A stretch of DNA of 64,000 nt from Salinispira sp. (GCA_965226555.1 CBDDDG010000014.1:1-64000); one strand, 5' to 3'; counted from the first letter of the stretch, positions 5,311-33,961 are shown. Notes: a model not told the origin generated them from the sequence alone. Program-made: numbers and translations.

Positions 5311-5351
5311 TCTGCGGGAAAAAATTTCTGCTATGTAATTTTTATTATGTA

Positions 5352-5449
5352 GAAACTTTTGCATAAAGCAAAAGTTTCAGATCGAGGATGCTTTCTTTTG
5401 CTTAGCATTCTCCAATTTTATAGAAAGTTTTGCATTTTGCAAAACTTTC
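5352..5449. repeat. double-hairpin dispersed repeat (REP/MITE-like)
   Basis: GAAACTTTTGC-N5-GCAAAAGTTTC, a 44 bp spacer, then GAAAGTTTTGC-N5-GCAAAACTTTC. Related copies at 46288-46440 and 49045-49168. Confidence 0.8.
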
Positions 5450-5484
5450 ATGTATTGTAAACTATACTTCTGGGTGAGGGTGCA

Positions 5485-6666
5485 ATGCGTTTTCCAGACG
5501 AGAGTTTAAATATATATTTGGATAATAATGCAACAACAAAATTACTCCCTGAGGTTCGTACTCGAATTATGGAAATAATTTCAGAATCGTACGGAAATCC
5601 TTCGAGTCCGCATTCCTATGCTAATTTTTCAAGGAAGATAATTGAAGATTCCCGTAATCAGATTGCTGAAATTCTTAATTCTGATTCACGAAAAATTTTA
5701 TTCACATCTGGCGCAACTGAATCAAATCGTTCAGTATTTTATCAACTTACGCGAGCCCCCGCACATCAAAAGGCTATTATTACCACACCCTCCGAACATG
5801 CATCGGTGAAATTTAATAGTCAGCTACTTAGCACTCAGGGATTTAAGGTAATCGAATTATCAATCAATAATAACGGGGTAATAAATATTTCTGAATTGCG
5901 GAAAATCTTTGAAACAGAGGATGTTGCTTTAGTTTCTGTAGGTTGGGCGAGTAATGAAACCGGAGTCATTCAGCCTGTCAATAAGATTGGGGAGCTTTGT
6001 TCTCAATATAATGCCTATTTTCATTGTGATGCTTCTCAGTATATCGGGCGAGGAACAATTGATCTGAAGAAGGTAAAAATTGACTTTCTTTCCTTTACCG
6101 GACATAAGCTTCACGCTCCGCAGGGAATTGGGGTTCTGTATATCAGGAGTCCTGAGAGATTTATTCCATTGTTTGGTGGCGGAGAGCAGGAATATAGGAT
6201 GAGAGCTGGTACTGAGAATATTATTGGAATTGCGGCCATTGGAAAAGCCATTGAGATAAGGAGGAAGAAATTGAGGGAATCTATTGATTATCTGAGAAAA
6301 TTGCAGAGCTATTTTGAAGGTCGAATGAAAAGCCTTATATCCGATCTTTGTGTGAATGGTGAATCAACGAACAGAACCCCTAATACTTCAAGCATAACCT
6401 TTGAAAAAATTGATGGGAGAGCTTTAATGGGGCAGTTGGATATGGTTGGTATTTATTGTTCTCAAACGTCTGCTTGTACGAGTATGATTCCCGAACCCTC
6501 TGAAACTCTATTAGCAATGGGGTTAACGGTTGATGAGGCCTTTGCCTCTATAAGATTTAGTTTTGCGGTTGATAATACCCGGAAAGAAATTGAAATAGCG
6601 GTTGGTGTGATTGCGGATAAAGTTAAGAACATAAGAAAATTTTACGATTTACGGAAGGCAGTATGA
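5485..6666 (+). CDS. sspA: cysteine desulfurase (IscS/DndA/SspA type)
   Basis: YLDNNATT, GNPSS, TGHK (PLP lysine) and SAC motifs; overlaps the next gene (ATGA). Confidence 0.9.
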   Translation: MRFPDESLNIYLDNNATTKLLPEVRTRIMEIISESYGNPSSPHSYANFSRKIIEDSRNQIAEILNSDSRKILFTSGATESNRSVFYQLTRAPAHQKAIITTPSEHASVKFNSQLLSTQGFKVIELSINNNGVINISELRKIFETEDVALVSVGWASNETGVIQPVNKIGELCSQYNAYFHCDASQYIGRGTIDLKKVKIDFLSFTGHKLHAPQGIGVLYIRSPERFIPLFGGGEQEYRMRAGTENIIGIAAIGKAIEIRRKKLRESIDYLRKLQSYFEGRMKSLISDLCVNGESTNRTPNTSSITFEKIDGRALMGQLDMVGIYCSQTSACTSMIPEPSETLLAMGLTVDEAFASIRFSFAVDNTRKEIEIAVGVIADKVKNIRKFYDLRKAV

Positions 6667-7571
6667 GGTTTGGTGGTCATCAGACTTTTGCCATTCGCGA
6701 TGGATGGCTCTATAAGGGGCTGGAATTGCTATCAGAGAAAGATGAAGCATATAAATTAACACATGAATTTGCAATGGATTATCTCGGAGTCGGTCGAAAC
6801 ATGGCAAAATCGATCAATCATTGGTTATTGGCCACAAGGTTAGCGGAGAGAACCGAAGTAAAACATAATAACGGTGAGAATGAGATTACAACGAGGGAAC
6901 TGAAAATCTCTGAGTTAGGGAAGCTTATTTGGGAACATGATCCGTATTTTATGAACATCAATACATGGTGGATCATTCATATAAATCTTGTTAATAATCC
7001 TGAATACACTGCGTCATGGCATTGGTTCTTTAATAAGTTTTTATCTGATCGGTTCCAGAAAGAAACTTGCTACATTGCGCTCGAACGTCATGAAAAAATC
7101 AATAGCGCGCGTGTACCATCCCGTACTACCTTAGAGAGAGACATTAGTTGTTTATTGTCGACATATTCTGAGAACATTCCGTCAAAACGAAATGATCCTG
7201 AAGATGAAATAGAATGTCCCTTAGTTGAATTAGGATTGATGAAATGTTTTCGAAATTCCGGTTTTTTCGAAATAAATCGCAGTCTAAAAAATATTCCATT
7301 GGAAATTTTCTTGTATGCTCTGAGTTGCGCTCATAAGGAAATAGAGAATAGTGAATATTCTACTATCTCATTTTTTCCAATGATTAATCTTGATAATAGT
7401 CCGAGCAAAATTTTTCTGCTATCTAATGAAGGAATATTTGAACTGATAATGAAGCTATCTGAGGAGGGTGATGATGTCAGCTTATTCGGAGCAGCCGGAG
7501 AGAGGTTGCTGCGCTACAGGAATGAGGAACCATACCATTGGGCCGAAAAATATTATTCAAGAGTAGAGTGA
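6663..7571 (+). CDS. sspB: DUF4007 protein, SspB-like
   Basis: FGGHQTFAIRDGWLYKG, LGVGRNM, HDPY and PLVELGL are DUF4007 signature motifs. Confidence 0.85.
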   Translation: MRFGGHQTFAIRDGWLYKGLELLSEKDEAYKLTHEFAMDYLGVGRNMAKSINHWLLATRLAERTEVKHNNGENEITTRELKISELGKLIWEHDPYFMNINTWWIIHINLVNNPEYTASWHWFFNKFLSDRFQKETCYIALERHEKINSARVPSRTTLERDISCLLSTYSENIPSKRNDPEDEIECPLVELGLMKCFRNSGFFEINRSLKNIPLEIFLYALSCAHKEIENSEYSTISFFPMINLDNSPSKIFLLSNEGIFELIMKLSEEGDDVSLFGAAGERLLRYRNEEPYHWAEKYYSRVE

Positions 7572-7583
7572 GTACGATGCTAT

Positions 7584-10500
7584 ATGATAGCTCAAAAAAT
7601 AGATTATAGTATTCAATCAATTTTACGATCCATCAATATTCTTTATGACGCAGAGTATGTAGAACGTATAGCTCATTTCCAGCCGACAAGCAAGGCAGTT
7701 ATTTTGCTGGAGTCGTTACTTGCATTGAAAAAAGAGCGGGCTTTTTTCATTTCAGCTCCTTATGGTTCAGGCAAGTCTATAACGAGTACATATATACTCC
7801 ACGCGATAGAAAATCGGCCTCAATCAAAAACAATTTTGTCGGAACTCAATACTCGGGTAATGAATATCGCTCCGAGGGTAGGGGAATTTCTGAAAAATAG
7901 GGAGAATGGCAACGATAAAGGTATTGTCATTGCTCTCCGGGGATATCAGGAAAACTTGGCGCAGTCAATTAGGGAATCCTTACAGGATTCTTTTACCCGA
8001 CATGGTTATGAGGATCGCATTGTACATCAGTTCGAGTCTCTTAATTTCGATGCTCTTGTTTCCCGCCTTCCCCTGTTGAATGAATATGTGAAAGATTTTC
8101 CTGTTGATCGGATTTCATTTATTTGGGATGAATTTGGACGACACATTGAAGGCCTTATTGAAAGCGGCCAACCTTCGAGATTAAATGAACTGCAAACATT
8201 GGCGGAATGTGCCAGCAGGTCTGCTTCAATCTCCATTACAATAGCCCCGCTCCTCCATCAGAATTTAATAAATTACGCGGGTAAAACCCCACAATCGGTG
8301 AAGCAGGAGTGGAGAAAGATCGGAGGACGTTTTGAAACAATTCAGTACATTGATGATTCAAAAGAGATTTACACACTCATTGCCAACGTAATTAATAATT
8401 TGGCACAAACCGAAAAATCTAATGTTAATTTTCAGCAAGTAATATCAGTTTTTCATCAAAACAAGATAATGAATGATTTTTCTTCAGGGGAGCTGTTTGA
8501 GATTTTTTCAAAAAGCGCTCCGTTAACTCCGGCTGCTCTATTCATTCTCCCAAAACTTTCATCGCGAATTGCCCAGAACGAAAGAACTCTATTTACATTC
8601 CTCAATGCGGTAAATTTTTCAGAAAGTATTCATGGAGGAATACTTTACGATTATTTTGCTCAAAATATGAGTCAGGATACAACGGTTGGGGGAGTTTTCC
8701 ACCAGTGGTCAGTAACAGAAAGCGCGTTGAGTAAGGCAGAAAATGAACTTGAAATTGAAATTCTAAAAACCTTGAGTTTGTTAAACATTGCCATGGCGAT
8801 AAGTAAAGGGAGAGTGTCAAAAGATTTATTACGAATCACCGTTTTACGTTCGAATATAAACAAAAAACAAGTTGATGATGCAATTGAATCATTGTTGAAG
8901 CGTAAATTGCTCCTTCATCGAAAAAATACTGATTCCGTAACAATTTGGCATGGAACTGAAGTCGATTTATTTTCACGGTTACAGGAAGAGAAGGAGCGGC
9001 TTTCAGGATCATTTGATGTAATTGAGTTCATAGAAACACACTTTGAACCTGTTCACTGGAAGCCAGTTGAGTATAACAGTAAATTTAGAATTCACCGCTA
9101 TTTTCGTAGTGAGTATATTGGCTATGAGCGCTTGCGTGAACTAAGATCTGAAGGCATAGATAATATGTTTTCGGAGACAAAAGATGATGGACGAATATTT
9201 TTTTATCTTCCCGCTTCAGATGATGAACTGAAAAAAGGTCGAAAATTAATTCTTGAGAACGGAGGTAACAAACGAGTACTGTGGGCACTTCCGAGAAAAA
9301 AACTCGAACTGCATGAAATCGCATTAGAAGTTGCCGCCTATTTATTGATGTTAGAGGATACTGCATTAATCGAATCGGATCCATACCTGAAAACAGAAAT
9401 GCATCATTTACTTGATGATGCTATGGAATATCTTCAAAAATTGGTTGAAATTGTTACCGTTCCATCTTTGCGAGGTCCAATTTTTCTCCATGAAGGTAAG
9501 ACAATTGAGCAACGTTCGCCTAGGGAACTGAGGCAGTATTTATCAACAATTATGAAAGATGTTTTCTCAGATACACCAAGACTTAATAACGAAATGATCG
9601 TCAGACAACACCTTCGTCCAGCGCTCGTTAATGGAAGAAAGAAATTTCTTTTTGCCGTTCTCGAAAGTACCGGAGCAGAGAGATTAAATCTTGAGGGATA
9701 TACTCCTGATGTATCGATTTTTAGATCACTTTTATTAAATTCGGGCTTATATCGGCAGAGATATAACGAAAAAACACGTCTGAATTGGGGATTTGCGCTT
9801 CCTGAAGAGCTTGAGGATGGGGGATTAGCCAAGATATGGAAAAAATTTCAAGATTTTTTCACTGATCCGGGAGAAAATAAGTCATTTTTCAAATTTTTTG
9901 AAGAACTAAAAGCACCCCCGTATGGACTTCGCAAGGGTGTTGTTCCTGTTTTTCTTGCCAGTGCCCTTCGCTCATTTCCCAGTGTTTTATCGATAACGCA
10001 TCTTAAAAAGGGATATCTGGAGGATATTCTTCCAAGCCATTTGGAGGATATTTGTGAGCACCCGGAAGAATATCGGGTTTCGGTAAAAATACTAAGCGAT
10101 GAACGAGTAGAACTCTTGCGGAGAATTGATAAATTGTTTGATCCAGAAGAGAAAATTAGTGTTCATGAAAAAGATATTATCAGGAAATCGTACGATGCCA
10201 TTGAAATGTGGAAAAGCAAGCTCCCTGAAGCGGCGCTCACATCGCGCCGCATATCCACCGAAGCGCGAATATTTCAGGAGACCATACGGACGATAAAAAA
10301 TCCATGGGATACCTTTTTTACAACGATTCCATCCAAATACAATAGTTCAGACATAAATTATTTGTTTGCGCTTATTGAAAAATCGAAAGCAGAACTGGAA
10401 GATGTTACAACTGCCTATTATGAAATGGCGCGAAAAAGTATTCTCAGCGCATTGCAAATGCCTTCATATTCAAATAATCAGATGTCTGAAGCTATTTCCC

Positions 10501-10910
10501 TCTGGCTTTCCTTTCTCCCGAAGGAGCTCTTTATAAATTTTAAAGATTCAATTGCAAGGGCACTTATGAATCGCTTACACATGAAATATCAACATTCAAA
10601 TCTTCTTATCGATTCCATTGCGGGACTTCTGATAGGAAAACCTATAAATAAATGGGATGATAGTACCATTACTGTTTTTGAACGGGAATTTCATGAAAAT
10701 ATTCACCATATCGAAGATTTTGTGCTAAGTTATGGAGATAACCAAGAATTAGGCGCGGCCAGGATGAATTTAGCAAATCTCGCTGTGACCAGAATGAATT
10801 CCCTATTCAAAAAAATTGTCGATCTTCTTGGCAGTAAATCTGAAGCAGAGAGAATTGTGAGAGAGAAATTAGATATAGAGATGAGTAAAAATCAAAGTAC
10901 GGCTCAATAA
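7584..10910 (+). CDS. sspC: large P-loop ATPase, SspC-like
   Basis: Walker A PYGSGKS, Walker B WDEFGR, AQNERTLFTFL and PPYGLRKG; 1108 aa between DUF4007 and a PAPS reductase. Confidence 0.85.
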   Translation: MIAQKIDYSIQSILRSINILYDAEYVERIAHFQPTSKAVILLESLLALKKERAFFISAPYGSGKSITSTYILHAIENRPQSKTILSELNTRVMNIAPRVGEFLKNRENGNDKGIVIALRGYQENLAQSIRESLQDSFTRHGYEDRIVHQFESLNFDALVSRLPLLNEYVKDFPVDRISFIWDEFGRHIEGLIESGQPSRLNELQTLAECASRSASISITIAPLLHQNLINYAGKTPQSVKQEWRKIGGRFETIQYIDDSKEIYTLIANVINNLAQTEKSNVNFQQVISVFHQNKIMNDFSSGELFEIFSKSAPLTPAALFILPKLSSRIAQNERTLFTFLNAVNFSESIHGGILYDYFAQNMSQDTTVGGVFHQWSVTESALSKAENELEIEILKTLSLLNIAMAISKGRVSKDLLRITVLRSNINKKQVDDAIESLLKRKLLLHRKNTDSVTIWHGTEVDLFSRLQEEKERLSGSFDVIEFIETHFEPVHWKPVEYNSKFRIHRYFRSEYIGYERLRELRSEGIDNMFSETKDDGRIFFYLPASDDELKKGRKLILENGGNKRVLWALPRKKLELHEIALEVAAYLLMLEDTALIESDPYLKTEMHHLLDDAMEYLQKLVEIVTVPSLRGPIFLHEGKTIEQRSPRELRQYLSTIMKDVFSDTPRLNNEMIVRQHLRPALVNGRKKFLFAVLESTGAERLNLEGYTPDVSIFRSLLLNSGLYRQRYNEKTRLNWGFALPEELEDGGLAKIWKKFQDFFTDPGENKSFFKFFEELKAPPYGLRKGVVPVFLASALRSFPSVLSITHLKKGYLEDILPSHLEDICEHPEEYRVSVKILSDERVELLRRIDKLFDPEEKISVHEKDIIRKSYDAIEMWKSKLPEAALTSRRISTEARIFQETIRTIKNPWDTFFTTIPSKYNSSDINYLFALIEKSKAELEDVTTAYYEMARKSILSALQMPSYSNNQMSEAISLWLSFLPKELFINFKDSIARALMNRLHMKYQHSNLLIDSIAGLLIGKPINKWDDSTITVFEREFHENIHHIEDFVLSYGDNQELGAARMNLANLAVTRMNSLFKKIVDLLGSKSEAERIVREKLDIEMSKNQSTAQ

Positions 10911-10924
10911 AGGAGTGTTTATAG

Positions 10925-11737
10925 ATGGCAACATTGGCAGAAGCTTTGGCAACAATTGGAGATAATAATTACCGACATATTGTTCCGGTGTCCGGTGGTA
11001 AGGATTCCGCGGCATTGGCAATATATATGAAACAGAAATATCCGGAAATAGATGCTGAATATGTCTTTACCGATACCGACTGTGAATTGCCCGAGACATA
11101 CGAGTATCTTGAAAGACTTCAGGGTTTACTCGGAAAAGAAATTCATAGAACTAATGCGCTGGATAGTTTGAAAATAGAGCGTAAACCGGGTCGCAAGGCA
11201 TTCGATATTTACTTAAACGAATTATATGGGGGCTATCTTCCGAGCCCTCGGGCGCGCTGGTGTACTGGTGTTCTGAAAATTAAACCTTTCGAGGCTTATG
11301 TAGGTAATTCGACAGCTTTCAGCTATATAGGTATTAGGGGAGATGAAGACCGTGAGGGCTATATACCGAAAAAACCGCCTAAATTTTCAGATAAACCAAA
11401 CATTATCCCCGTGTATCCTTTTAAGGATGACGGTAAAACGTTAAGTGATATAAAGGCTATTCTTGAAGAGGCTGGCATAGGCCTTCCCAAATATTATAAT
11501 TGGCGAAGCCGTTCCGGTTGTTTTTTCTGCTTTTATCAGCAGATGGGGGAATGGCAAGGTCTTAAGGAACGACATCCTGATCTCTTTGAATCCGCAAAGA
11601 AATATGAGAAAACTACGGGAGAAAAGAAATTCACTTGGGTGGAAGGTCGGTCATTAACGGATATCGAAAATATGAAGGAACGATATTCTGTCGCCGATAT
11701 GGATGAAACCGAAGGCTGCGCTATTTGTCATATTTAG
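10925..11737 (+). CDS. sspD: PAPS-reductase-family protein, SspD-like
   Basis: SGGKDS PP-loop, RWCT, RSGCFFC and C-terminal CAICH. Confidence 0.85.
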   Translation: MATLAEALATIGDNNYRHIVPVSGGKDSAALAIYMKQKYPEIDAEYVFTDTDCELPETYEYLERLQGLLGKEIHRTNALDSLKIERKPGRKAFDIYLNELYGGYLPSPRARWCTGVLKIKPFEAYVGNSTAFSYIGIRGDEDREGYIPKKPPKFSDKPNIIPVYPFKDDGKTLSDIKAILEEAGIGLPKYYNWRSRSGCFFCFYQQMGEWQGLKERHPDLFESAKKYEKTTGEKKFTWVEGRSLTDIENMKERYSVADMDETEGCAICHI

Positions 11738-11799
11738 GCATTCAGGTTTCCTGAGCATGCGGTTTTTCATATACTCCCCCAAAGGAGGGATTATTCGAT

Positions 11800-12750
11800 A
11801 TGTTGCTACTCAGCGATAAGGAACTGGCATACAAATATAAAGAGTTTATTTTCCACCATGAAAATATCGTCATATTCTCTCCCTACATAAAACTTAACGC
11901 GTTAAAGTATATTTGTCATGATAATGAAAAACGGATCAGCAGTATTATTACTTCTTGGAAGCCGATAGATATTGTTTCTCAGGCGACAGATCTCAGTGTA
12001 TATGATTATGCGAAAGAAAACGGAATTACATTATATGTGAACAATGAAATTCATCTGAAAGTTATCGCAGACATGCAATTTAACTCCTGTATTCTTTCAT
12101 CGGCAAATATCACCAATAGAGGCTTATCCTTATCGGACAAGCACAGTTGGGAACTGGGAACAATTGTCGAGAAAATAGATGAGGAGACAAGGCATTATCT
12201 CCATAACATTATTGTAAAATCATTTGTGGTGCATGATGAATATTATAACAGCATTATCAATGAAATTCAGAAATTTCCTCCTGTCGAAAAAATTCCTCCG
12301 GCATTCAAAACTCCTTTTCCGAAGAAAAAATATACACTCAATGATCTCCCGTATTTTGATAATCCAAGTCGGTTATTTAACATTGGAAAAACAACTTTTG
12401 TTAGTGAAGGCAATGAATTCAGAAATGCCTTCCATGATTTACACCTGTACAATTGTATTTTATGTAATGATGAAACCGAGTTCTTCAATAAGATGAAATT
12501 GGAATTTCAAAATCATTACTTCATTCGGGAACTTATTAATTTTATCGGAGAAGGGCAGCGATTTGGTGCCATTTCATCGTGGTTGCATAACACATTACAG
12601 GATGATCCAGCTCCACCCCGTAAAATTATAAAAGAATTTCAACAAAGAATTTTTGCATACATTAGGTATTTTATGTCCGATGAATTTCAGATTACCCGTC
12701 CGAGCCATTCAGAATATATAACAAGAATTACTAGCGCAGGAAGAGAATAA
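11800..12750 (+). CDS. phospholipase D (HKD)-family nuclease domain protein
   Basis: SPYI, HLK..SANIT..GL..E: single-HKD nuclease pattern followed by an unknown C-terminal domain. Confidence 0.8.
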   Translation: MLLLSDKELAYKYKEFIFHHENIVIFSPYIKLNALKYICHDNEKRISSIITSWKPIDIVSQATDLSVYDYAKENGITLYVNNEIHLKVIADMQFNSCILSSANITNRGLSLSDKHSWELGTIVEKIDEETRHYLHNIIVKSFVVHDEYYNSIINEIQKFPPVEKIPPAFKTPFPKKKYTLNDLPYFDNPSRLFNIGKTTFVSEGNEFRNAFHDLHLYNCILCNDETEFFNKMKLEFQNHYFIRELINFIGEGQRFGAISSWLHNTLQDDPAPPRKIIKEFQQRIFAYIRYFMSDEFQITRPSHSEYITRITSAGRE

Positions 12751-12751
12751 G

Positions 12752-14389
12752 ATGAATGAAATAATTGTATCAGCACTCTCGCGATTTGGTCATGATGAAC
12801 TACGCAATTTTCTCCCCAAAAGCGCGCGGCAGTTGCTCGTTGGAGTCAATAAATTGAAGGATGAGGTTGAACTGAATTCTTCAAAATTGGCAAGGGTGAT
12901 CTGGCATAATTTTCCTGAGAGGTTTCTCCGTGATCCTTCAGCGTTCATTGAAGTAATAGAACATTTTGATGAAAAAGATGTTGCGCAGATTATTCTGGGC
13001 GATCGGGAAAAATTTAAGGAGGTAACTCCATCTCATTATATGGAACTGAAAAGATTTTACCAATCCGATCTACGGGCTTTTCTGGATAAAATTTCAGCCC
13101 TCGAAGATTATAATGCCATTCAGGTTATGAATGAGACAAAAATACAACTGAGACGCGTTAAACCGAATTTCAAGCTATTCGAATATCAAGCTGATATTTC
13201 ACGAACTGTCCTTTCAAAAATGAGGCGGGAGAAGAATGCCCGAATGCTTATTCACATGCCCACCGGTTCAGGAAAGACGCGGACTGCCATGAATGTTGTG
13301 TGTGAACATTTGCGGGAAAATAACGACAATTTAGTTGTCTGGCTGACTGACCGCGAAGAATTGTGTCAGCAAGCTGTCAGTACGTTTGAATTGGCCTGGG
13401 GCAATCTTGGTCTTTATGACAGCACGGTGTATAGCTTTTTTTCTGATACCGATGATACTGTTGGAGGCGTTGAATCCGGCTTTCTTGTCGCTGGCCTGCA
13501 AAAAATTCATGCCTTGAAATCAAGTAAAAAACGAAACACAAAACTCTTATACGAAATATTATGTAATGAGGTCACTCTCATTGTATTCGATGAGGCTCAT
13601 AAATCCATTGCGGATACATATAGGGCAATAATCGAAGACATAATTCTCCGCAATGATATTCCATTCATTGGGTTAAGCGCAACTCCCGGCAGAGAATATT
13701 CCGAAGACGGGCTGACCCCCGCGGATATGAAACTTGCCGCTTTTTTCAACATGCAGAAAATTTCAATGGAGATACGCGGATATTTGTCGCCAATTGATTT
13801 CCTTGTTCAAAATAAATATTTGGCTGATGTTACTTTTTATCCGCTCCATTATAAATACTCAAAGATACTTGGCGATAATATTAGTAGATTTGCTGAAAAT
13901 CGAACTGAAATTGTCCAAATGTTGGCGACAGACTCCGATCGTAATGCAATTTTGTTGGAAACAATAATGAAAGAGGTAAACAATGGCAGCCAGATCATAG
14001 TATTTGCGACCAGTGTTGAACATTCCGTGAATCTTGCGGTATTATTGTCGTATTCGGGTGTCGCGGCAGTTTCCATTGATAGTAACAATGACACAAAACT
14101 TACCCGAAGGTTGAAAGTCGAGCGATACCTGAAAAAAGAAATTCAAATATTGGTCAATTTTAATGTTCTTACAACCGGATTTGACGCGCCAAAAACGAAT
14201 GTTGTTATAATTGCACGCCCGGTTTCTTCTTTGGTTCAGTATTTCCAAATGGTTGGCAGAGCAATGCGGGGAGAGCACAGCGGAGGTAATTTGAATTGCC
14301 GAGTATATACAATTATGGACGATATTCCTGAATTCAAAGATGTTGTTAAGGCCTTTGAATATTGGGATGAAATGTGGAGGAATAAATGA
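12752..14389 (+). CDS. SF2 DEAH helicase (ResIII-like)
   Basis: MPTGSGKT, DEAH, SATP, TGFDAP and QMVGRAMR motifs. Confidence 0.9.
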   Translation: MNEIIVSALSRFGHDELRNFLPKSARQLLVGVNKLKDEVELNSSKLARVIWHNFPERFLRDPSAFIEVIEHFDEKDVAQIILGDREKFKEVTPSHYMELKRFYQSDLRAFLDKISALEDYNAIQVMNETKIQLRRVKPNFKLFEYQADISRTVLSKMRREKNARMLIHMPTGSGKTRTAMNVVCEHLRENNDNLVVWLTDREELCQQAVSTFELAWGNLGLYDSTVYSFFSDTDDTVGGVESGFLVAGLQKIHALKSSKKRNTKLLYEILCNEVTLIVFDEAHKSIADTYRAIIEDIILRNDIPFIGLSATPGREYSEDGLTPADMKLAAFFNMQKISMEIRGYLSPIDFLVQNKYLADVTFYPLHYKYSKILGDNISRFAENRTEIVQMLATDSDRNAILLETIMKEVNNGSQIIVFATSVEHSVNLAVLLSYSGVAAVSIDSNNDTKLTRRLKVERYLKKEIQILVNFNVLTTGFDAPKTNVVIIARPVSSLVQYFQMVGRAMRGEHSGGNLNCRVYTIMDDIPEFKDVVKAFEYWDEMWRNK

Positions 14390-16194
14390 GCAACAGATTT
14401 CTTAACGGACAAACAGTTATACACTCACTTCGCGATAATGGATATAGCAATACTGCGTATGCTCTTGCTGAGTTAATTGACAATAGTATTCAGGCAAAAG
14501 CCACCAGAGTCGAATTGTGTTTTCTTGAGTCGTCTAAGCAGAATCCAAAACGAATAACATCATCGGTTGATCACATTATTGTGTGGGATAACGGAAACGG
14601 CATGGATTCAGATACCCTTGTCAAAGCCATGCAATTTGGCGGGAGCAAAAACAGAGAAGAAGTCGGTGGAATGGGTAAATTTGGGATGGGGTTGCCGAGT
14701 TCCTCCATCAGTCAATGTAAGCGGGTTGACGTCTGGAGTTGGCAAAATAATCAGACACCCCTGTATACATATCTTGATGTCGATGAAATGCGAAACGGTA
14801 CTCTGGAAGATGTTCCGATTCCCGAACCAAAAAAACTGCCGAAAGAAGTGGAGAAAGCTTTATTTCCTGTCATGCCGGAGTCGGGAACTCTAATAATGTG
14901 GTCGAAACTCGATAGAATTAACTGGAAAACCGGAAAATCGATATTCACGCACTGTGAGTATCTGGTCGGTCGCTTGCACCGACGATTTATTAATAACGGG
15001 AAAGTTGTCATTAAGGCGAAAATTTTTACGCAAATTTCAAGTGGTGAATTGGAGTTGCAAAATACGGAATTATTCAAATGTAATGATCCATTGTACTTGA
15101 TGAAGGATACATCTCTACCTGAATTACCCAGACCTTATGAAGGCGAGAGTTTCTTTGAATTGTATAGTAGTAATGCCACTATTGAGGGGGTGTATCGAAA
15201 CGAAGATGGTGAGGAAGATATGGCTAAGGTTATTGTTCGATCCACAATAGTTAAAAAATCTATTGCGAAAGAAATACTCAAAACATCTTCCATAAGACTT
15301 GGAGGCACGGAGTGGGGAAAACATTGCGCTAAGAATATTGGGGTTTCCATTGTACGTGCGGGAAGAGAATTAGCGTTGAAAAAATCGTTTTTGAAGAAAG
15401 AACTTCGCGAGTATAAGGGGCGGTTTATTGGTATTGAAGTTGAGTTTCCTCCAAAGTTAGATCATATTTTTGGAGTAACAAATAATAAGCAGGATGCTGT
15501 TAAGCTTGTGGATGTCGATTTTGCTGAATTAGCCGAGCAAGGAGGGTTTGAATTAGAAATTGAATATGAGAAGGAATTAGAAGAAAATAATGATCCATAT
15601 TTGACTGTGCGAAAAGTTATTAAGGCGATAAAAAATCAGATTGATGCGCTTGATAAAGAGTTAAAAAATATTCAGATTGAAGGAAAATTATCCAGAGCTC
15701 ACCCCGGTGCCGAAACAGAGAAGCAAGTTGCAATTGACGCAACAAATCGTTCAGATTTTCGTGAGGAGCAGGGGCATAAGGCCGATGATTACTCACAATC
15801 ACTGGAGAAAGATTTAATTAAGGAAACGTTAACGAAAAAAGGGTACTATTCTGATAAGGATGCCGAGGGAGTTGCGGTGGAAATTGTTTCTAGCGAACAA
15901 CGATACTACATTGATAGTAAACCGCTTGGAGATTCACCCGCTTTTTTTGATGTTTCTACCGCTAATGGTCTGACACTTGTCATGTTTAACACGAATCATC
16001 CCTTTTACGAGATGCTAATATCCAAATTGGATAAAGACGAACTGTATTTTCTTGAACTTGCGATAGCTGGATTTGCGCGGATGATGAACGAAGAATCCTC
16101 TGATAAGCACAAAGCTTATCTGAATAAGATTCGCCAAGGATGGGGCAGTGTTGTTGCGGATTTTCTCAGGGAAGAACTAGAGGACGATTTCTGA
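14386..16194 (+). CDS. MORC-like GHKL ATPase
   Basis: ALAELIDNS, DNGNGM, GKFGMGL, SGT and FGVTNNKQ; overlaps the helicase (ATGA). Confidence 0.85.
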   Translation: MSNRFLNGQTVIHSLRDNGYSNTAYALAELIDNSIQAKATRVELCFLESSKQNPKRITSSVDHIIVWDNGNGMDSDTLVKAMQFGGSKNREEVGGMGKFGMGLPSSSISQCKRVDVWSWQNNQTPLYTYLDVDEMRNGTLEDVPIPEPKKLPKEVEKALFPVMPESGTLIMWSKLDRINWKTGKSIFTHCEYLVGRLHRRFINNGKVVIKAKIFTQISSGELELQNTELFKCNDPLYLMKDTSLPELPRPYEGESFFELYSSNATIEGVYRNEDGEEDMAKVIVRSTIVKKSIAKEILKTSSIRLGGTEWGKHCAKNIGVSIVRAGRELALKKSFLKKELREYKGRFIGIEVEFPPKLDHIFGVTNNKQDAVKLVDVDFAELAEQGGFELEIEYEKELEENNDPYLTVRKVIKAIKNQIDALDKELKNIQIEGKLSRAHPGAETEKQVAIDATNRSDFREEQGHKADDYSQSLEKDLIKETLTKKGYYSDKDAEGVAVEIVSSEQRYYIDSKPLGDSPAFFDVSTANGLTLVMFNTNHPFYEMLISKLDKDELYFLELAIAGFARMMNEESSDKHKAYLNKIRQGWGSVVADFLREELEDDF

Positions 16195-16249
16195 TTACGT
16201 CTGTTTTTCACAACGCCCACCTTGTATTCTCCGGGGTAATTCGGATGTG

Positions 16250-16367
16250 ATTGGAAGGAAGTACAGCCTGCCGATCATCATCAATGAGCAAAATTCATCG
16301 CACCGTTCGGTATCTGAACACCGAAGCTCAATGAGTTTCTCGGGCTGGCTGAGGAGCATCAAATGTT
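16250..16367 (+). mobile_element. collapsed remnant of the IS at 1-887
   Basis: 16257-16274 is identical to 91-108 and 16324-16340 is identical to 636-652. Confidence 0.8.
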
Positions 16368-16445
16368 AATATCCCACCAATTACTGAGCGGCGGTGTCTT
16401 TTTATCGGAAAATATGATACTATGGATGTGGAAAAGTAGGGAGCT

Positions 16446-17303
16446 ATGGGAAAAGTCAATGTCGAAGCGAAGAAAAACTACTCTGAAAAAATTAGGGTAT
16501 ACAAGAGAAAAATTGAAAAAATCCACCGAATTGAAAAAAACATTCTGGCAGAGATACAAAAGGACCCAAAATCCCGGGCCTCCGCATATGTTGTTCTCTC
16601 TGAAGAACATCTGAATCTTGCCGCAAATTATTTACTTCTCAATCGCATCTCGGTATCGCAGCTTGGAATAAAGAATGATAGCTTTCTGAATGATGCCCGA
16701 AAGTGTTGTTATGAAAGCATCATTTATCTGGAAAAAATTGTTACCGATCAGATTGACATACCGTTTTCCGATTTAGATGAAGCCTGGCGTTCTCTGGCGG
16801 GCCTGAGTGACCCGAAGCGCTACCAACTCATGAACAAGCTTGGGTTTACTATTGATTCGGTCATGGAAGGTTTTGGGGAGAATACTAAGTGGAAATGGTC
16901 CTTTGTCGACCTAAATGGCAGATATGCCACTGTGCTCAAGAATATCATTAATTTCCGCACCATTATTCCCGGGCTTGATCCGCGCATACAAGATTATCAG
17001 ATACGGTATAAACTCCTTGCCAGAGTAAAGCAGCTTTTGAATAAATCGGCTAACGATTTTCGTTTAAAATACGAGCTTTCAAGCAAGCGAATAGACGATT
17101 TTCGAACCGCCATACGGTTTTTAACTGTGCTTTTTCGCGTGTACAATATTCTGGGAGAAAACGATTTGGCAGAGGGAGTAAAAAAGAAGATTATTACATG
17201 GAAGCAGAAAATGGAAGATGACGCAAAAAAAGAGAAAACTAACTCCACGCAACAGCGAGGCTCCGCCGCCCAGCGAGGCTCCGTAAAGCGGAGAAAAACC
17301 TGA
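16446..17303 (+). CDS. conserved hypothetical helical protein
   Basis: 285 aa ORF with SD (GGAG); no recognised catalytic motif. Confidence 0.8.
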   Translation: MGKVNVEAKKNYSEKIRVYKRKIEKIHRIEKNILAEIQKDPKSRASAYVVLSEEHLNLAANYLLLNRISVSQLGIKNDSFLNDARKCCYESIIYLEKIVTDQIDIPFSDLDEAWRSLAGLSDPKRYQLMNKLGFTIDSVMEGFGENTKWKWSFVDLNGRYATVLKNIINFRTIIPGLDPRIQDYQIRYKLLARVKQLLNKSANDFRLKYELSSKRIDDFRTAIRFLTVLFRVYNILGENDLAEGVKKKIITWKQKMEDDAKKEKTNSTQQRGSAAQRGSVKRRKT

Positions 17304-17307
17304 GTTC

Positions 17308-18450
17308 ATGAGGCAGTTTCTCGTTGTCATAGTTTCTGCTGTTATCATCGGCATGTGTGTATCAATAGTTATTAATCCTCCTCGCCTTGCCGATGAAATT
17401 CTTCTTTCTCCGTATTGGACTTCAGCATACCCTGCGGAATCGTTCGGCGCAGAAACAGCAGCAGCAGCAGAAACAGAGGTCTGGGCGCCACTCTTTCTGG
17501 GCGATGAACTCCTCTTTGTGCATGCCGATGGTATTCTCGGCGCTCGGGAAAAAGAAGACTTTTACCTCCATTACACAGCCAATAGTTACGTGAACATTCC
17601 CCGCAAACATACTGCTGTTACTGTCAGAAATTACTCTGGCGATAGTATTATGAGCCTTGACGGCGCCGGTTTTCCAATACTTTCCAATTCACTTATCTTC
17701 ATGGTTTCTCCCGATGGGTTTGGGGTTGATGCGCAGGATGCGGAGGGTAACCGTCTTTTTTCCCGGCGCTGGTCCAGCCTTGTTATTACGGCTGACATTT
17801 GTCGGTTTGGTGATGATACAATGAGCGCTGTTGGTTTGCTCGATGGTCGGGTCTATGTATTTGTGAATGCGCATGAGGCTGTTCTTTCAGAGCCGGAAGA
17901 TTCCGAACTTTCCGTTCTTTACGGGCTTGCCCTGCATATTTCTGAAGACCGGGGGAAGACATTTGTGCATCTGTTCACGGTAGAGGGCTTTCATTCGCTG
18001 GTGTTACGGCATCAGACCTTTGAATTTACTGAAGAGGGAACCCTTGTTCCTGCCGGTAATATCAGCATCCCCCTATTGTCGCAGACAACTGCAATGATCC
18101 CGATCAAGATATTTGACAATTCTGTTGTGTTAGGGCGGAAGGAATTTGCCGAGGTCTACTCCATGGATTCTCTGGGACTGGAAGTATCGGATAATCGGGG
18201 CGGCAGCGCGCCTGTTATTATTCAAGGATCGGGAAATTTTCAGAATGTCTGGCAGAATGCGGAGCTGGATATTACCATGTATTCCTTTGCCGATTCCCGC
18301 CAATCGGAAATGAAAATGTACACGGGGGCGGGCATGCCGATTTTTTCATCTCTGCGTTCCTTTGCCTCTGCTGTGTGGACAGAGGGTTCCATCATGTATC
18401 AGCGGAACTCGGGCAGGGTATTTCTGTATCGTATTGAGGAGGGCTCATGA
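17308..18450 (+). CDS. hypothetical membrane-anchored/exported protein
   Basis: N-terminal hydrophobic helix; operon spacing. Confidence 0.75.
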   Translation: MRQFLVVIVSAVIIGMCVSIVINPPRLADEILLSPYWTSAYPAESFGAETAAAAETEVWAPLFLGDELLFVHADGILGAREKEDFYLHYTANSYVNIPRKHTAVTVRNYSGDSIMSLDGAGFPILSNSLIFMVSPDGFGVDAQDAEGNRLFSRRWSSLVITADICRFGDDTMSAVGLLDGRVYVFVNAHEAVLSEPEDSELSVLYGLALHISEDRGKTFVHLFTVEGFHSLVLRHQTFEFTEEGTLVPAGNISIPLLSQTTAMIPIKIFDNSVVLGRKEFAEVYSMDSLGLEVSDNRGGSAPVIIQGSGNFQNVWQNAELDITMYSFADSRQSEMKMYTGAGMPIFSSLRSFASAVWTEGSIMYQRNSGRVFLYRIEEGS

Positions 18451-19262
18451 AACAGAGCTGTATCGTTCTTATTCTCCTCTGTGCGATGCTCTGTACAACG
18501 TCCTTTGAATGGCCCGATGATGGGGAGCTTCTTACTGAATTCTCAGGGACCGATTCCATTGTTCAGTTCGGTAACAATGTTCCGTATATGGTGTTCAATG
18601 AGGGCGCTGCATTGCATCCTCCTTCAGGAACAATGGTTTTTCAGGGAAGGCTTCCCAACGGGCTTGGAGATATTCAGGTATTCAGTATTGAAAATAGATT
18701 TTTGTATCTTTACGGTACAGCGGCAGCATCATCACGTGCCATACTCATTCTGGATGCCGCGCAGCGGCGAATTATCAACCCTGAAATTCTTCTGGGTAAC
18801 CCTGAGGAAAATACTGCCCCGGCACTTCGGAAACTTACCATATTCCGAAAACCTGTGCCCGATCCGAATGCGGATCCGGAGCCGGAAGCAGACTCGGAGG
18901 CAGAACTGATAAAGGTATTGTATCCATGGAACAGCGGGAATGTTCTGCGCATTAATTCAGGTGAGTATTTTCTGAGCATAGACTGGGTTGATGGCCGCCG
19001 CTCCTTTGCCGATGTTGAAAATCTTTATTCCATTCTCCTCTATATGAATGGCGAATTGGCATATCAGCAGGGAATTATGTACTTTCAGGAACAGCAGAAT
19101 TCTCTGGAGTTGGTTCCCGGGTTTCATGGTGATATTACCTCAATATCGTTTATGATCAAACCGGGAAAGAATCTTCTTGAATTATATCTTCAGGATCCAA
19201 AGGGGCTATCGGCGCGTTATGATTTTTTCATTACTGGGGAAAGTATTCCGACAGCAGAGTAG
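18447..19262 (+). CDS. exported protein, possibly degenerate M23-peptidase-like
   Basis: Signal peptide and FEWP, PNGLG and INPE motifs, but no HxH metal ligands. Confidence 0.55.
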   Translation: MKQSCIVLILLCAMLCTTSFEWPDDGELLTEFSGTDSIVQFGNNVPYMVFNEGAALHPPSGTMVFQGRLPNGLGDIQVFSIENRFLYLYGTAAASSRAILILDAAQRRIINPEILLGNPEENTAPALRKLTIFRKPVPDPNADPEPEADSEAELIKVLYPWNSGNVLRINSGEYFLSIDWVDGRRSFADVENLYSILLYMNGELAYQQGIMYFQEQQNSLELVPGFHGDITSISFMIKPGKNLLELYLQDPKGLSARYDFFITGESIPTAE

Positions 19263-26669: not shown

Positions 26670-27449
26670 TCATAGAAACTTTTGCATTACAGACAGCGGA
26701 TTTTTGAGGCGCTGTTCCGCCATTTCGCAATATTCAGGGGAAATATCTATACCGACAAAGCGCCTTCCAAGATTTTTTGCCGCTAAAGCTGTTGTTCCCG
26801 AACCCATAAATGGATCCAGAACACTATTAGCCGTAGTTGACGAAATAACTCTCTCAATGAGTTCAACGGGAAATGGCGCCGGATGCTTATTTTTACTTTC
26901 CTGACCAAACTCCCATATATCGCCATGCGCGTTTGCTTTTTCTGCGAGTCTGAATTGCGGTTTTGCTATTACATAAATGACCTCATAGGTTGGAAGAAAA
27001 TATCCCGGATTAAAATTTATACCGCCGTTTCTTCGCCAGATAATAATTTGACGCACGGGAAAACCGGAGACAATGTCACTTCTATCTTGTAATAGTCCGG
27101 CCTGCACTCTCCATTTATGGTTGTAGAAAATTGCGCCGTTCTCCGGAATTATTCGTAACATTTCAGCTAAACAATTCCGTTGCCATTCAACGTATTCATT
27201 ATGCGGCATATTGTCATTGTAGTTGGAGTACCCATGTATTAAGGCGGCGCTTGACCATTTTCCGCCATTGCCGTTTTTCATGCCGTTTCCGGTGGAATTT
27301 TTTAAATTATACGGTGGAGAGGTAACAACTACATCAATACTGCCATCTGGAATCTGTTTCATTACCTGCGCGGCGTTCCCGCAAATAAACCTGTCCAGAA
27401 AATCTTCAGGAAATTGCATGTTGCCATTATGCCGTACTTTCCCACTCAT
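26670..27449 (-). CDS. orphan beta-class N4/N6 DNA methyltransferase
   Basis: TSPPY precedes HPAPFP and DPFMGSGT; no adjacent endonuclease gene. Confidence 0.9.
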   Translation of the reverse strand: MSGKVRHNGNMQFPEDFLDRFICGNAAQVMKQIPDGSIDVVVTSPPYNLKNSTGNGMKNGNGGKWSSAALIHGYSNYNDNMPHNEYVEWQRNCLAEMLRIIPENGAIFYNHKWRVQAGLLQDRSDIVSGFPVRQIIIWRRNGGINFNPGYFLPTYEVIYVIAKPQFRLAEKANAHGDIWEFGQESKNKHPAPFPVELIERVISSTTANSVLDPFMGSGTTALAAKNLGRRFVGIDISPEYCEMAEQRLKNPLSVMQKFL

Positions 27450-28048: not shown

Positions 28049-29977
28049 ATGAGGATGAAATTATTCACCAATGCACGGAGAATTTCCCTTGGGGTTCTGT
28101 TCTGTGCGATCTTTATTGTGCTGGTCGGTGGATGCCCACTGTTGTTCGCGCCGCCTGCCATGTCTGCGCCAACCCTTGAAGTGGGGAACCGTTCACTTGT
28201 TGTATTCTGGACTGGGCCGTCTGCTCTCTGGAATGCGGCAAACAGCAATGCTGATAACGGGCTGAGCGAGTATCACCTGCGTTATCGCGAAGAAGGCAGA
28301 GGGAGCTGGAAGGAGATTACCGAGGGGCTTCCCATTACCGGCGTCCTGAGCCATACCATTACGGGGCTGACAAACGGCGTCAGTTACGAAGTGCAGGCTC
28401 GCGCCGTCAATGCGACCGGTACTGGTGAATGGTCGGCATCATCTGCCGCATTATCGCCTGCCGCCGTTCCCGATGCTCCAACTGCTCTGACACTCGAAGA
28501 GAAGAACAGGAAACTTATTGCGACATGGATGAAACCGATCTACGATGGCGACCGCCCTATTACCGGGTATGAGCTGCAATATCGTACAAGCGGTGGAGTC
28601 TGGCCAGATGACTCCCTCAGCATCAGCGCAGACACAACAAGCCATACCATTACGGAGCTGACAAACGGTACCGAGTATGATGTGCAGGTACGCGCCGTCA
28701 ACGCAGAGGGCGCAGGGAGCTGGTCATCTGTCACCACCTTATCGCCTGCTACCGTTCCCGATGCCCCAACTGCTCTGACTCTCGAACTTCAGAACAAGAA
28801 ACTTGCTGCTGCATGGACAATACCGGACTACGATGGTGACCGCCCTATCACCGGATATACATTACGATATAGTGACGACAGTGGAACCACGTGGAAGGAG
28901 ATTACCTCCGATAACGGCACTGCCACAAGCTATACCATTACCGGCCTAGCAAACCAAACCAGTTATGATGTACAGGTTCGCGCTGTTAACTCGCAGGGTG
29001 AGAGTGACTGGTCTGCATCTGACACGGAAACGCCGCGACTTTATGCGACACATACTCCTGCGGGTACGGCAGAGCTTGTAAACCTGTCGCCTGAAATAGA
29101 AGCCCGTATTGTCGATGAGAGTCTCACCGTTTCTTTGGCTACGGCTACTATCCCGGTCGCAGGGGTTACCGTTAGCTACCCAACAGTTAATGCGAACGGA
29201 GTTATTACCGTTGTCGCAAATACAACGGCAGGAACATACATAGTATCCGGCACAGCTGGAGGAACCGAACAGTTTTCCGAATATTTCTTTGTTACCGTGA
29301 CTCCTCCTCAAGGTAGCGATGGTGGTAAATCTGGACTGAAAGTAAGGGTAACTGCGGGAATAAGTAATTGGGGCGATACTGCCGATCTCAACTACATTAT
29401 TACCTCGGAAGTAACGAACATGTCCAATATTTTCACAGACGTAAGCACATTCAATGGCGATATTTCCGACTGGGATGTCAGATCGGTAACGAATATGGGA
29501 GTTATGTTCAAGAATGCATACGCATTCAATGGCGATATCTCGGACTGGGATGTCAGCTCGGTAACGAATATGTTTGATATGTTCTCTAGCGCACGGGCAT
29601 TCAATAACGATATCTCCGGTTGGGATGTCAGCTCGGTAACGAATATGCAAACTATGTTTGCTTCTCCCAATACTCCTATAGGCATATTCAATGTCGATAT
29701 CTCCGACTGGAATGTCAGCTCGTTACAGGATATGAGCGGTATGTTTGGTTATTCAAGAAATTTCAATCAGGATCTTGATGCATGGAAGGATCATTGGACG
29801 CTTGAAGATGGCAAATATAAAGTACCAGATGGAACTTTTGACTCTATGGGGAACCCCAACCTTGTGGAAATTATAGACGGCAATATGTTTTTGGGATCCG
29901 GCGTGGTGACGAATACGGACGGGTCGGATATGAATACGCCTCAGGGAGTGAGTGCTCCAAGTTGGTATACACCATAA
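28049..29977 (+). CDS. surface lipoprotein: 3x fibronectin III + BspA/DUF285 repeats
   Basis: Lipobox VGGC, YEVQARAVN FN3 motifs and 25 aa FNGDISxWDVSSVTNM repeats. Confidence 0.9.
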   Translation: MRMKLFTNARRISLGVLFCAIFIVLVGGCPLLFAPPAMSAPTLEVGNRSLVVFWTGPSALWNAANSNADNGLSEYHLRYREEGRGSWKEITEGLPITGVLSHTITGLTNGVSYEVQARAVNATGTGEWSASSAALSPAAVPDAPTALTLEEKNRKLIATWMKPIYDGDRPITGYELQYRTSGGVWPDDSLSISADTTSHTITELTNGTEYDVQVRAVNAEGAGSWSSVTTLSPATVPDAPTALTLELQNKKLAAAWTIPDYDGDRPITGYTLRYSDDSGTTWKEITSDNGTATSYTITGLANQTSYDVQVRAVNSQGESDWSASDTETPRLYATHTPAGTAELVNLSPEIEARIVDESLTVSLATATIPVAGVTVSYPTVNANGVITVVANTTAGTYIVSGTAGGTEQFSEYFFVTVTPPQGSDGGKSGLKVRVTAGISNWGDTADLNYIITSEVTNMSNIFTDVSTFNGDISDWDVRSVTNMGVMFKNAYAFNGDISDWDVSSVTNMFDMFSSARAFNNDISGWDVSSVTNMQTMFASPNTPIGIFNVDISDWNVSSLQDMSGMFGYSRNFNQDLDAWKDHWTLEDGKYKVPDGTFDSMGNPNLVEIIDGNMFLGSGVVTNTDGSDMNTPQGVSAPSWYTP

Positions 29978-33753: not shown

Positions 33754-33961
33754 ATTCAAGACCACCTAACGCTTCTTTGAATGTGCTTAATGCCTTGAGG
33801 CTCTCATTCATAGTATATGGAGAAATACCACTTATTCAGAAAAAGGTCAACCACATCAGAACTTCCTGTGCGAATTCAACATTTGAAGTGCACATTCTTC
33901 TGCCGTTTGATATAATGTGACAAAGTTTCTTGTGAGAAAATTATTCAGGACAGGGGGGGCC

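Follow-up and report, generated by a model that had tools for sequence, protein, structure and literature searches.

Which restriction partner serves an SspABCD system that has none of the described ones? According to Wang et al. 2021 (PMC8092258), 2,211 of 2,678 sspBCD loci are without sspE and sspFGH; those authors proposed further restriction partners and left open whether the partnerless loci are orphans or have other partners. The question arises for a 64,000-nucleotide stretch of Salinispira sp. DNA (GCA_965226555.1, CBDDDG010000014.1:1-64000; this whole stretch is called the window). At positions 5485-16194, an SspABCD core for single-strand DNA phosphorothioation (PT) is followed by three genes that encode an HKD nuclease of the phospholipase D (PLD) family, a DEAH-box helicase and a GHKL ATPase, referred to here as the trio. 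A preliminary description, made from the sequence, proposed that the trio forms an alternative PT-coupled anti-phage effector. Our comparisons support this proposal, as none of the three proteins is assigned to a known partner system and their homologues recurrently neighbour ssp genes. The trio is probably a PT-coupled restriction arm of the SspABCD system, not previously named and predicted to attack DNA without the Ssp mark; we put the probability of this reading at about 0.6.

Results

The SspABCD core and the trio form one inserted unit

Seven plus-strand open reading frames (ORFs) were found at 5485-6666, 6663-7571, 7584-10910, 10925-11737, 11800-12750, 12752-14389 and 14386-16194. The co-oriented, tight packing that had been described was reproduced in full, with ATGA start/stop overlaps at 6663 and 14386, read off the sequence, and intergenic gaps of 12, 14, 62 and 1 bp. 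Purine-rich stretches resembling Shine-Dalgarno sites stand 5' of most of the seven starts. The gene set is also AT-richer than its flanks, as first noted, with a GC content of 0.36-0.42 over 5.5-16.2 kb versus 0.45-0.53 on both sides. In two complete genomes of the same family (G064 and G089), the genes for NAD kinase, RecN, d1, d2, d3 and a methyltransferase are contiguous, RecN and d1 are about 45-70 bp apart, and the whole 11.1-kb block is missing between recN and d1. Because of the ATGA overlaps, the gaps of 1-62 bp and the absence of these 11.1 kb from both genomes, SspABCD and the trio are one horizontally inserted operon-like unit. This island spans 5311-16445, between recN (which ends at 5310) and the conserved core gene d1 (which starts at 16446).

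PADLOC models and Pfam agree with the earlier identification of the first four genes as SspABCD, and all four proteins are matched by their PADLOC models near full length. The cysteine desulfurase gene sspA (5485-6666, plus strand, 393 aa; PADLOC SspA, E 3.6e-115; Pfam Aminotran_5, 8.4e-78) encodes what we take to be the GHK lysine motif and the SACTS cysteine loop. It overlaps, by the first ATGA, sspB (6663-7571, plus strand, 302 aa), which encodes the DUF4007 DNA-binding and nicking subunit (PADLOC SspB, 1.3e-96; Pfam DUF4007, 8.9e-65). The product of sspC (7584-10910, plus strand, 1108 aa) is a large BrxC-like P-loop ATPase matched over residues 14-1044 (PADLOC SspC, 1e-142), and that of sspD (10925-11737, plus strand, 270 aa) is an ATP pyrophosphatase of the phosphoadenosine phosphosulfate (PAPS) reductase family (PADLOC SspD, 1e-93; Pfam PAPS_reduct, 1.6e-8). 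The catalytic motifs are intact: SspD has the PP-loop SGGKDS at residue 23, and the SspC Walker A residues G61, G63 and K64 and the Walker B pair D182-E183 are invariant in 30 of 30 aligned sequences. SspB is reported to be a nickase (PMC8092258).

The trio combines a nuclease, a translocase-type helicase and a MORC-like ATPase

The identities first given to the last three genes were confirmed by Pfam and, for the nuclease, by fold and profile. Their motifs, described as intact, do hold the catalytic residues in the window proteins, and these are invariant in the family alignments wherever they are aligned.

The first gene (11800-12750, plus strand) encodes a 316-aa nuclease that joins a single-HKD PLD domain (residues 1 to ~155) to a C-terminal tandem winged-helix module (~175-312), as assigned from the AlphaFold2 (AF2) model and the family profile. 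Family libraries barely detect it: Pfam PLDc_2 matches at E 0.001, under the Pfam cut-off, the DrmC model matches at E 0.0045, and neither NCBIfam nor PHROGs gave a match. The residues of the HxK...GSxN...E signature (H85, K87, S101, N103 and E118) are nonetheless invariant in 32 of 32 relatives. In the AF2 model (predicted local distance difference test score, pLDDT, 91.9), the N-terminal domain (1-155) is closest to SauUSI (Z 15.9, root-mean-square deviation 2.3, 145 residues aligned), followed by Nuc (14.8), NucT (14.7), BfiI (13.7) and NgoAVII (10.8), and SauUSI is also the best Protein Data Bank (PDB) sequence for the family profile (E 3.4e-8). The C-terminal domain resembles 3bhw (Z 7.9), N.BspD6I (7.2), FokI (6.2), BrxA (6.2) and SspB (6.1), and the regions matched in N.BspD6I and FokI are their DNA-binding parts; ArsR-type winged helices match the last 90 residues. 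By its modelled fold, this domain is thus best described as a tandem winged-helix DNA-binding module of the FokI/BrxA/SspB kind, a class given by fold only since the scores are middling and profile-profile comparison with SspB was empty. Homology of the C-terminal domain to SspB by sequence was rejected (hhalign probability 0.08% between the two family profiles), which leaves a fold resemblance at Z 6-8. The family of the nuclease has many members: among clusters at 50% identity, 8,623 representatives reach E ≤ 0.001 and 1,227 reach E ≤ 1e-30, and nearly all of its best 150 members are ~300-330 aa long and matched full length.

The second gene (12752-14389, plus strand) encodes a DEAH-box superfamily 2 (SF2) helicase/translocase of 545 aa (Pfam ResIII, 4.1e-23; Helicase_C, 1.8e-14), in which Pfam finds no domain of any kind outside the SF2 core. 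The N-terminal ~135 residues are poorly conserved and the C-terminal tail is conserved. Q146, the Walker segment G172-x-GKT176, the DEAH box at 280-283 and ATPGR at 310-314 are invariant in 27 of 27 sequences, as are Q499, G502, R503, R506 and G507 of motif VI. The nearest solved sequences are RadD (2.7e-14) and then SauUSI (2.3e-12; residues 136-508), and the best named relative is again the repair helicase RadD (NCBIfam, 3e-30). Among PADLOC models the best match is PbeA, with 89.7 bits (E 4e-26), which covers the SF2 part only and stands alongside similar matches to generic SF2 models.

The third gene (14386-16194, plus strand) encodes a 602-aa GHKL ATPase of the MORC/MutL type (Pfam HATPase_c_3, 1.9e-21), with GHKL and S5 transducer domains at residues 1 to ~435 and a conserved C-terminal domain at ~445-602. 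E29, N33, D68, G72, G97, G100, G102, T168 and K368 are invariant in 31 of 31 sequences. The protein has GHKL motifs I-IV and an S5 domain whose segment G319-VSIVRAGREL departs from the MORC motif GhXhhpXXRhl, as given in PMC2292703, at one position, an E at an h position. Within this segment, G319, R324, R327 and E328 are invariant (31 of 31), and L329 is invariant in a 10-sequence alignment. The family profile has six PDB sequence matches, all of them chains of human MORC2 (E 1.6e-4 to 1.1e-3). Residues 1 to ~435 of the AF2 model (pLDDT 87.8) match SMCHD1 (Z 19.5), MORC3 (18.8), MutL (17.8) and MORC2 (17.4), and fold alone cannot part MORC from its sister families because SMCHD1 and MutL score alike. 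A search with the whole model gave no fold match for the C-terminal 160 residues. PADLOC MzaB matches the N-terminal 170 residues only, and in PHROGs the ATPase matches one family with no assigned function.

The trio travels with ssp genes

Linkage was assessed in 86 loci with relatives of the ATPase, comprising 6 genome loci and the best 80 of 463 metagenome relatives, gathered by an alignment-based scan. The genome loci came from a single-protein genome scan that gave nine loci, six of them with full-length ATPase relatives, in records named gammaproteobacterium, Colwellia, Saprospiraceae, Melainabacteria, Sedimenticola and Actinomycetota. Where 1.7 kb or more of upstream sequence is present, the helicase gene directly precedes the ATPase gene in 68 of 70 loci, all but L046 and L051, and tblastn detected the PLD protein in 49 of the 56 that extend 1.2 kb or more downstream. 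SspB, SspC or SspD is encoded within 10 kb of the ATPase in 55 of 86 loci overall, in 40 of the 43 whose flanks total 8 kb or more, and in 20 of the 21 with 5 kb or more on each side, where L051 is the exception. The expectation that homologues of 11800-16194 recurrently neighbour ssp cores was thus borne out in the well-flanked loci. The ssp genes may be upstream and co-oriented, divergent, or downstream and convergent relative to the trio. In most loci the trio ends with the PLD gene; in the window and its closest relative (G168) it begins with it, and in two loci (L041 and L042) the PLD gene is on the opposite strand. The linkage is therefore not that of one frozen block, as gene arrangements differ. 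An SspE/DndB-like gene was detected with one query in 4 of 90 trio loci, so the trio is usually the sole candidate partner.

We found full-length relatives of the ATPase on 12 plasmids, three of them conjugative. On plasmid A of Trichormus variabilis ATCC 29413 (L148, 325261-338165), the trio lies between sspBCD plus a gene annotated 'DndB' and a cysteine desulfurase gene. The order is DUF4007, a large hypothetical protein, PAPS reductase, two small genes and 'DndB', followed by a DEAD/DEAH helicase, an ATP-binding protein, a phospholipase D family protein and the cysteine desulfurase. The 'DndB' protein has 768 aa and is SspE-like; the trio and an SspE-like protein can therefore share one operon. 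Overall, the trio travels with ssp genes across phyla and on plasmids.

Among 401 sampled genomes of the window's class, 6 other than that of the window contain a match to the ATPase, and the four best matches (G168, G127, G377 and G396) adjoin ssp genes. SspD relatives occur in 12 genomes and, with G377 and G396, 14 genomes of the sample bear Ssp genes. The ATPase of the trio is present in 5 of these 14, four of which have the helicase too, and SspFGH is present in one, which makes the trio the most frequent identifiable partner among them. Two others have DndB-like genes (one together with an SNF2 helicase) and one Ssp locus adjoins DISARM. G082, with two loci, has no named partner, G072 has a weak PDC-M55C match only, and in three the contigs are too short to show a partner.

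Single loci add some variations. In G168, which has the closest relative of the window system, an extra gene (L102:6764-7525) lies between the PLD and helicase genes; its 254-aa product has DUF2196 and MIT_C domains and a PLD-like fold and matches the C-terminus of BrxL (E 3.2e-41). G377 encodes a 1704-aa ORF (L097:7604-12715) that combines a full SspC (PADLOC, 1e-283) with the GHKL ATPase, with ~4 residues between them. The locus has SspA, SspB, SspC::GHKL and the PLD gene, is without the helicase and SspD, and no PAPS-reductase match was found within 0.69 Mb of the fusion. No second SspC::GHKL fusion was found among 5.8 billion protein clusters, and we did not retain this one as Rosetta-stone support, as it is a single case that a gene-joining deletion explains equally well. 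The one match returned by the search for fused forms is of another kind: a 974-aa metagenomic protein (P0123) fuses a methyltransferase (Methyltransf_23) with a MORC-type GHKL ATPase that is 40% identical to the ATPase part of the G377 protein.

Pairwise protein distances were compared over 27 non-redundant loci that hold all six genes. Trio and Ssp distances correlate with rho 0.18-0.56, and all tested pairs have Mantel p ≤ 0.012, a level that shared host ancestry can yield. The helicase and ATPase are the most closely matched (rho 0.80), at the level of SspB and SspC (0.77). The nuclease shows rho 0.41-0.56 with the Ssp proteins and 0.40-0.53 with its helicase and ATPase partners. The picture is one of a tight helicase-ATPase pair, a nuclease that tracks both sides, and frequent re-assortment relative to the Ssp core. 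Domain-specific co-evolution of the PLD protein's C-terminal domain with SspB was rejected, given that its N- and C-terminal halves behave alike (rho 0.56 and 0.47).

The trio differs from described partners

The SspABCD-SspE and SspABCD-SspFGH systems (PMC8092258) share with this locus the modification core and the predicted restriction role, and a multi-gene partner may stand beside the core. The partner proteins themselves are unrelated. SspF carries a Walker A motif and the C-terminus of SspH is FtsK-like (PMC8092258), whereas the trio has an HKD nuclease, a DEAH helicase and a GHKL ATPase. SspE is a DUF262-type NTPase with a C-terminal nicking nuclease. The SspE, SspF, SspG and SspH models have no match in the trio at E ≤ 0.01, a test that works for SspFGH because the same PADLOC library finds SspF, SspG and SspH in locus L122; the SspE model PDLC02785 scores at best 23.5 bits across the whole genome. 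There is no PbeB, PbeC or PbeD, and no ABC ATPase or small partner gene, in 5311-16445. DISARM is likewise not indicated, as DrmA and DrmB are missing from the island and the DrmC match of the nuclease (E 0.0045) is the only one. In sum, PADLOC assigns none of the three proteins to SspE, SspF, SspG, SspH, PbeBCD or DISARM, which agrees with the preliminary view that they are not known components, and PADLOC-DB 2.0.0 holds no model for the module.

Parts of the trio have nonetheless been seen in other settings. Iyer, Abhiman and Aravind 2008 predicted that prokaryotic operons of MORC and SFII helicase genes are restriction systems, with an HKD domain at the helicase N-terminus in 'a few instances' (PMC2292703). 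The window resembles these in its GHKL-S5 ATPase beside an SF2 helicase and in its HKD nuclease. It differs in that their HKD domain is fused to a Rad25-like helicase and their partners are DNA methylases (PMC2292703), whereas the HKD protein of the window is separate, has a winged-helix module and is partnered with SspABCD. That paper does not mention PAPS, and no sulfur-modification partner was seen in its account of MORC operons. PbeA, from the DndCDEA-PbeABCD system, likewise attaches an HKD nuclease and a ResIII/Helicase_C motor to a PT system. It was described as a component of the Pbe system, linked to Dnd, in which PLD, ResIII and Helicase_C are fused (PMC6459918), and later re-read as HKD plus SF2 with a CxC ABC ATPase partner (PMC10853773); MORC and GHKL are not mentioned in PMC10853773. 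PbeA is one fused chain that works with PbeB, PbeC (the CxC ABC ATPase) and PbeD (DndE-like) beside Dnd double-strand PT, whereas the window has a separate nuclease and a GHKL partner, and the 89.7 bits between the helicase and PbeA are at the level of generic SF2 similarity.

Among solved proteins, SauUSI (PDB 7clg), an ATP-dependent type IV restriction enzyme, comes nearest to the nuclease domain and, after RadD, to the helicase. Enzymes of its type hold a PLD domain, an SF2 helicase and a C-terminal domain for the recognition of modified bases in a single chain, and SauUSI cuts DNA with 5-methylcytosine or 5-hydroxymethylcytosine, whereas the window has split genes and a MORC-like ATPase beside genes that modify host DNA; the similarity is confined to the PLD and motor domains. 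MutL, UvrD and MutH show the division of labour proposed for the trio, with a GHKL-S5 clamp or switch, a helicase, and a nuclease that reads a strand mark. The trio differs from them in having no MutS-like sensor, an SF2 rather than SF1 helicase, a PLD rather than restriction endonuclease fold and a place in a mobile defence island. Thus, the nuclease and helicase resemble split HKD-SF2 enzymes such as SauUSI and PbeA, MORC operons were predicted in 2008, and the parts are therefore of known kinds; the coupling of the trio to Ssp is the new element. Full-text literature searches, which did not extend to supplementary tables, found, among the matches listed, no paper pairing Ssp or phosphorothioate with MORC, GHKL or HKD. 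In the passages covered, the words GHKL and MutL are absent from a 2026 BREX survey (PMC12839542), and 'helicase' is absent from a 2026 analysis of SspD neighbourhoods (PMC12914056).

Discussion

If the trio is the restriction arm of this system, a mechanism can be proposed. SspABCD would write single-strand PT at a target motif on host DNA. The DEAH helicase would act as an ATP-driven translocase on double-stranded DNA, like the motors of SauUSI and of type I and III enzymes. The PLD protein would dimerize to form one HKD active site, as in Nuc, BfiI and SauUSI, bind DNA through its own winged-helix module, and cut or nick it. The MORC-like ATPase may dimerize on ATP, clamp DNA and serve as a switch that licenses or restrains the helicase and nuclease, as MutL couples a signal to UvrD and MutH. 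The switch might be set by the DNA's PT state or through contact with Ssp proteins. Unmarked incoming DNA would then be degraded or its replication blocked, and PT-bearing host DNA spared.

Several observations weigh against a PT-coupled restriction arm. No known sulfur-binding domain was found, no component stands out as the reader of PT, and the likeness of the nuclease's C-terminal domain to SspB, BrxA and FokI is middling and finds no echo in the hhalign comparison with SspB. SspABCD works without the trio in published strains. Three loci with long flanks have no ssp genes (L047, L051 and L088), and L051 also has no helicase and no PLD protein. The linkage fractions overstate the independent support because the 86 loci are the query's nearest relatives and kin are non-independent. 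The helicase and ATPase correlate weakly with the Ssp proteins (rho 0.18-0.38), and the modules have therefore often been re-assorted. Finally, distant relatives of the ATPase serve other systems: the two weakest matches in the 401-genome sample, L100 (G272) and L101 (G400), which cover the N-terminal 200-400 residues only, adjoin DruA of Druantia type I and not Ssp. In L101, two GHKL genes stand in tandem.

The alternatives differ chiefly in what the trio would sense and on whose behalf. By the logic of SspE, PT on host DNA might activate the MORC-like ATPase, helicase and nuclease in trans, and the effect might be nicking or a block to replication in place of DNA degradation. SspE alone among Ssp partners has been studied mechanistically, and PT stimulates its NTPase and nicking activities (PMC8092258); the trio's two ATPases could be sensors. 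In addition, only 10-15% of consensus sites carry PT according to PMC12914056, which makes simple protection in cis awkward. We consider sensing in trans unlikely all the same, as Pfam and PADLOC reveal no DUF262 or other known PT-sensing domain in the trio, and an HKD nuclease with an SF2 motor is the design of translocating restriction enzymes. A bolder proposal, to which we give slightly less credence, is that the trio is a mismatch-repair-like strand reader for immunity, in which clamp, helicase and sequence-guided HKD nickase would read Ssp PT as MutL, UvrD and MutH read hemimethylated GATC, and a duplex without the mark would be unwound and destroyed.

The trio might instead not read PT at all. 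As an independent restriction system, SauUSI-like and modification-dependent or of the MORC type without restriction-modification genes, it would move with ssp genes through the clustering of defence genes. Its proximity to ssp in all but one of the 21 well-flanked loci, however, is far above ordinary defence-island clustering, on the plasmid of Trichormus it is enclosed by sspBCD and sspA, and it entered the window as one block with sspABCD; a nuclease-helicase without its own modification partner would also need another way to spare self DNA. An independent system is therefore improbable, even with the operons of MORC, SF2 helicase and nuclease genes that have been described without PT genes (PMC2292703), the three long-flank loci without ssp, the weak correlation of helicase and ATPase distances with the Ssp core and the varying order of trio and ssp genes in its favour. 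Least probable, in our judgement, is a module for the maintenance or repair of PT-DNA, in the manner of MutL, UvrD and MutH, that processes SspB nicks or oxidised PT sites and has no anti-phage role. Such a module would fit an ATPase that folds like MutL (Z 17.8), a helicase whose best named relative is RadD by NCBIfam and PDB alike, and an SspB reported to be a nickase (PMC8092258). It fits poorly with a nuclease domain closest to the restriction nucleases SauUSI, Nuc, BfiI and NgoAVII, with a trio that is patchy, plasmid-borne and horizontally inserted, as defence genes are, and with published Ssp systems that make PT without it.

The trio is a concrete, widespread candidate for the partnerless sspBCD loci, and one copy is on a plasmid of a culturable, named cyanobacterium, T. 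variabilis ATCC 29413. With a PT-coupled restriction arm, Ssp defence would gain a third, mechanistically different effector, and bacterial MORC ATPases would gain a function and a signal that can be tested. The coupling of an epigenetic mark to helicase and nuclease by GHKL clamps would also have a tractable model. Were the trio a strand reader, a bacterial MORC would for the first time be tied to a defined epigenetic signal, and the silencing of foreign DNA by MORC and SMCHD1 in eukaryotes would have a forerunner in prokaryotes.

Island borders and genomic surroundings

The insertion separates recN from d1, and the three unannotated genes at 16446-19262 are therefore core genes outside the system. 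Mobility signals at the island edges were sought and rejected, as 5311-16445 has no tRNA at its borders and no flanking direct repeat, and there is no integrase among the seven genes. The 174-bp leader upstream of sspA contains two operator-like 27-nt palindromes, at 5352-5378 (GAAACTTTTGC-N5-GCAAAAGTTTC) and 5423-5449 (GAAAGTTTTGCA-N3-TGCAAAACTTTC). Their arms of 11 and 12 nt are 100% complementary within each copy, and the copies are 81-85% alike and 71 nt apart. From their sequence, they look like paired operators for a putative regulator; the island (5311-16445) contains no regulator gene.

The region 824-2067, about 3 kb upstream of the island, may be a second defence or toxin-antitoxin-chaperone set. 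It encodes a SecB-like protein (1675-2067) with matches to PD-T4-9_C (E 7.9e-17) and to phrog_21664 (7.9e-16), a phage family with no assigned function, and the ORF at 824-1357 has a faint PD-T4-9_A match only (E 0.009). Downstream, 18 kb from the Ssp island and past a pst operon, a 595-aa GmrSD-type protein with DUF262 and DUF1524 domains (33917-35704) matches HEC-06 at full length (E 5e-176) as well as Dnd-associated Orf5, and SspE models match its N-terminus only. Across the genome, DUF262 is matched in full eight times, and a ninth match is broken by two stops. An N6/N4 DNA methyltransferase gene on the minus strand (26670-27449; PADLOC MTase_II, E 2.9e-117) adjoins that of thiamin pyrophosphokinase. 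Two large proteins with fibronectin type III repeats and DUF285 domains are encoded at 28049-29977 and 39525-41216, and a YhgA-like transposase gene (37542-38591) lies between their genes.

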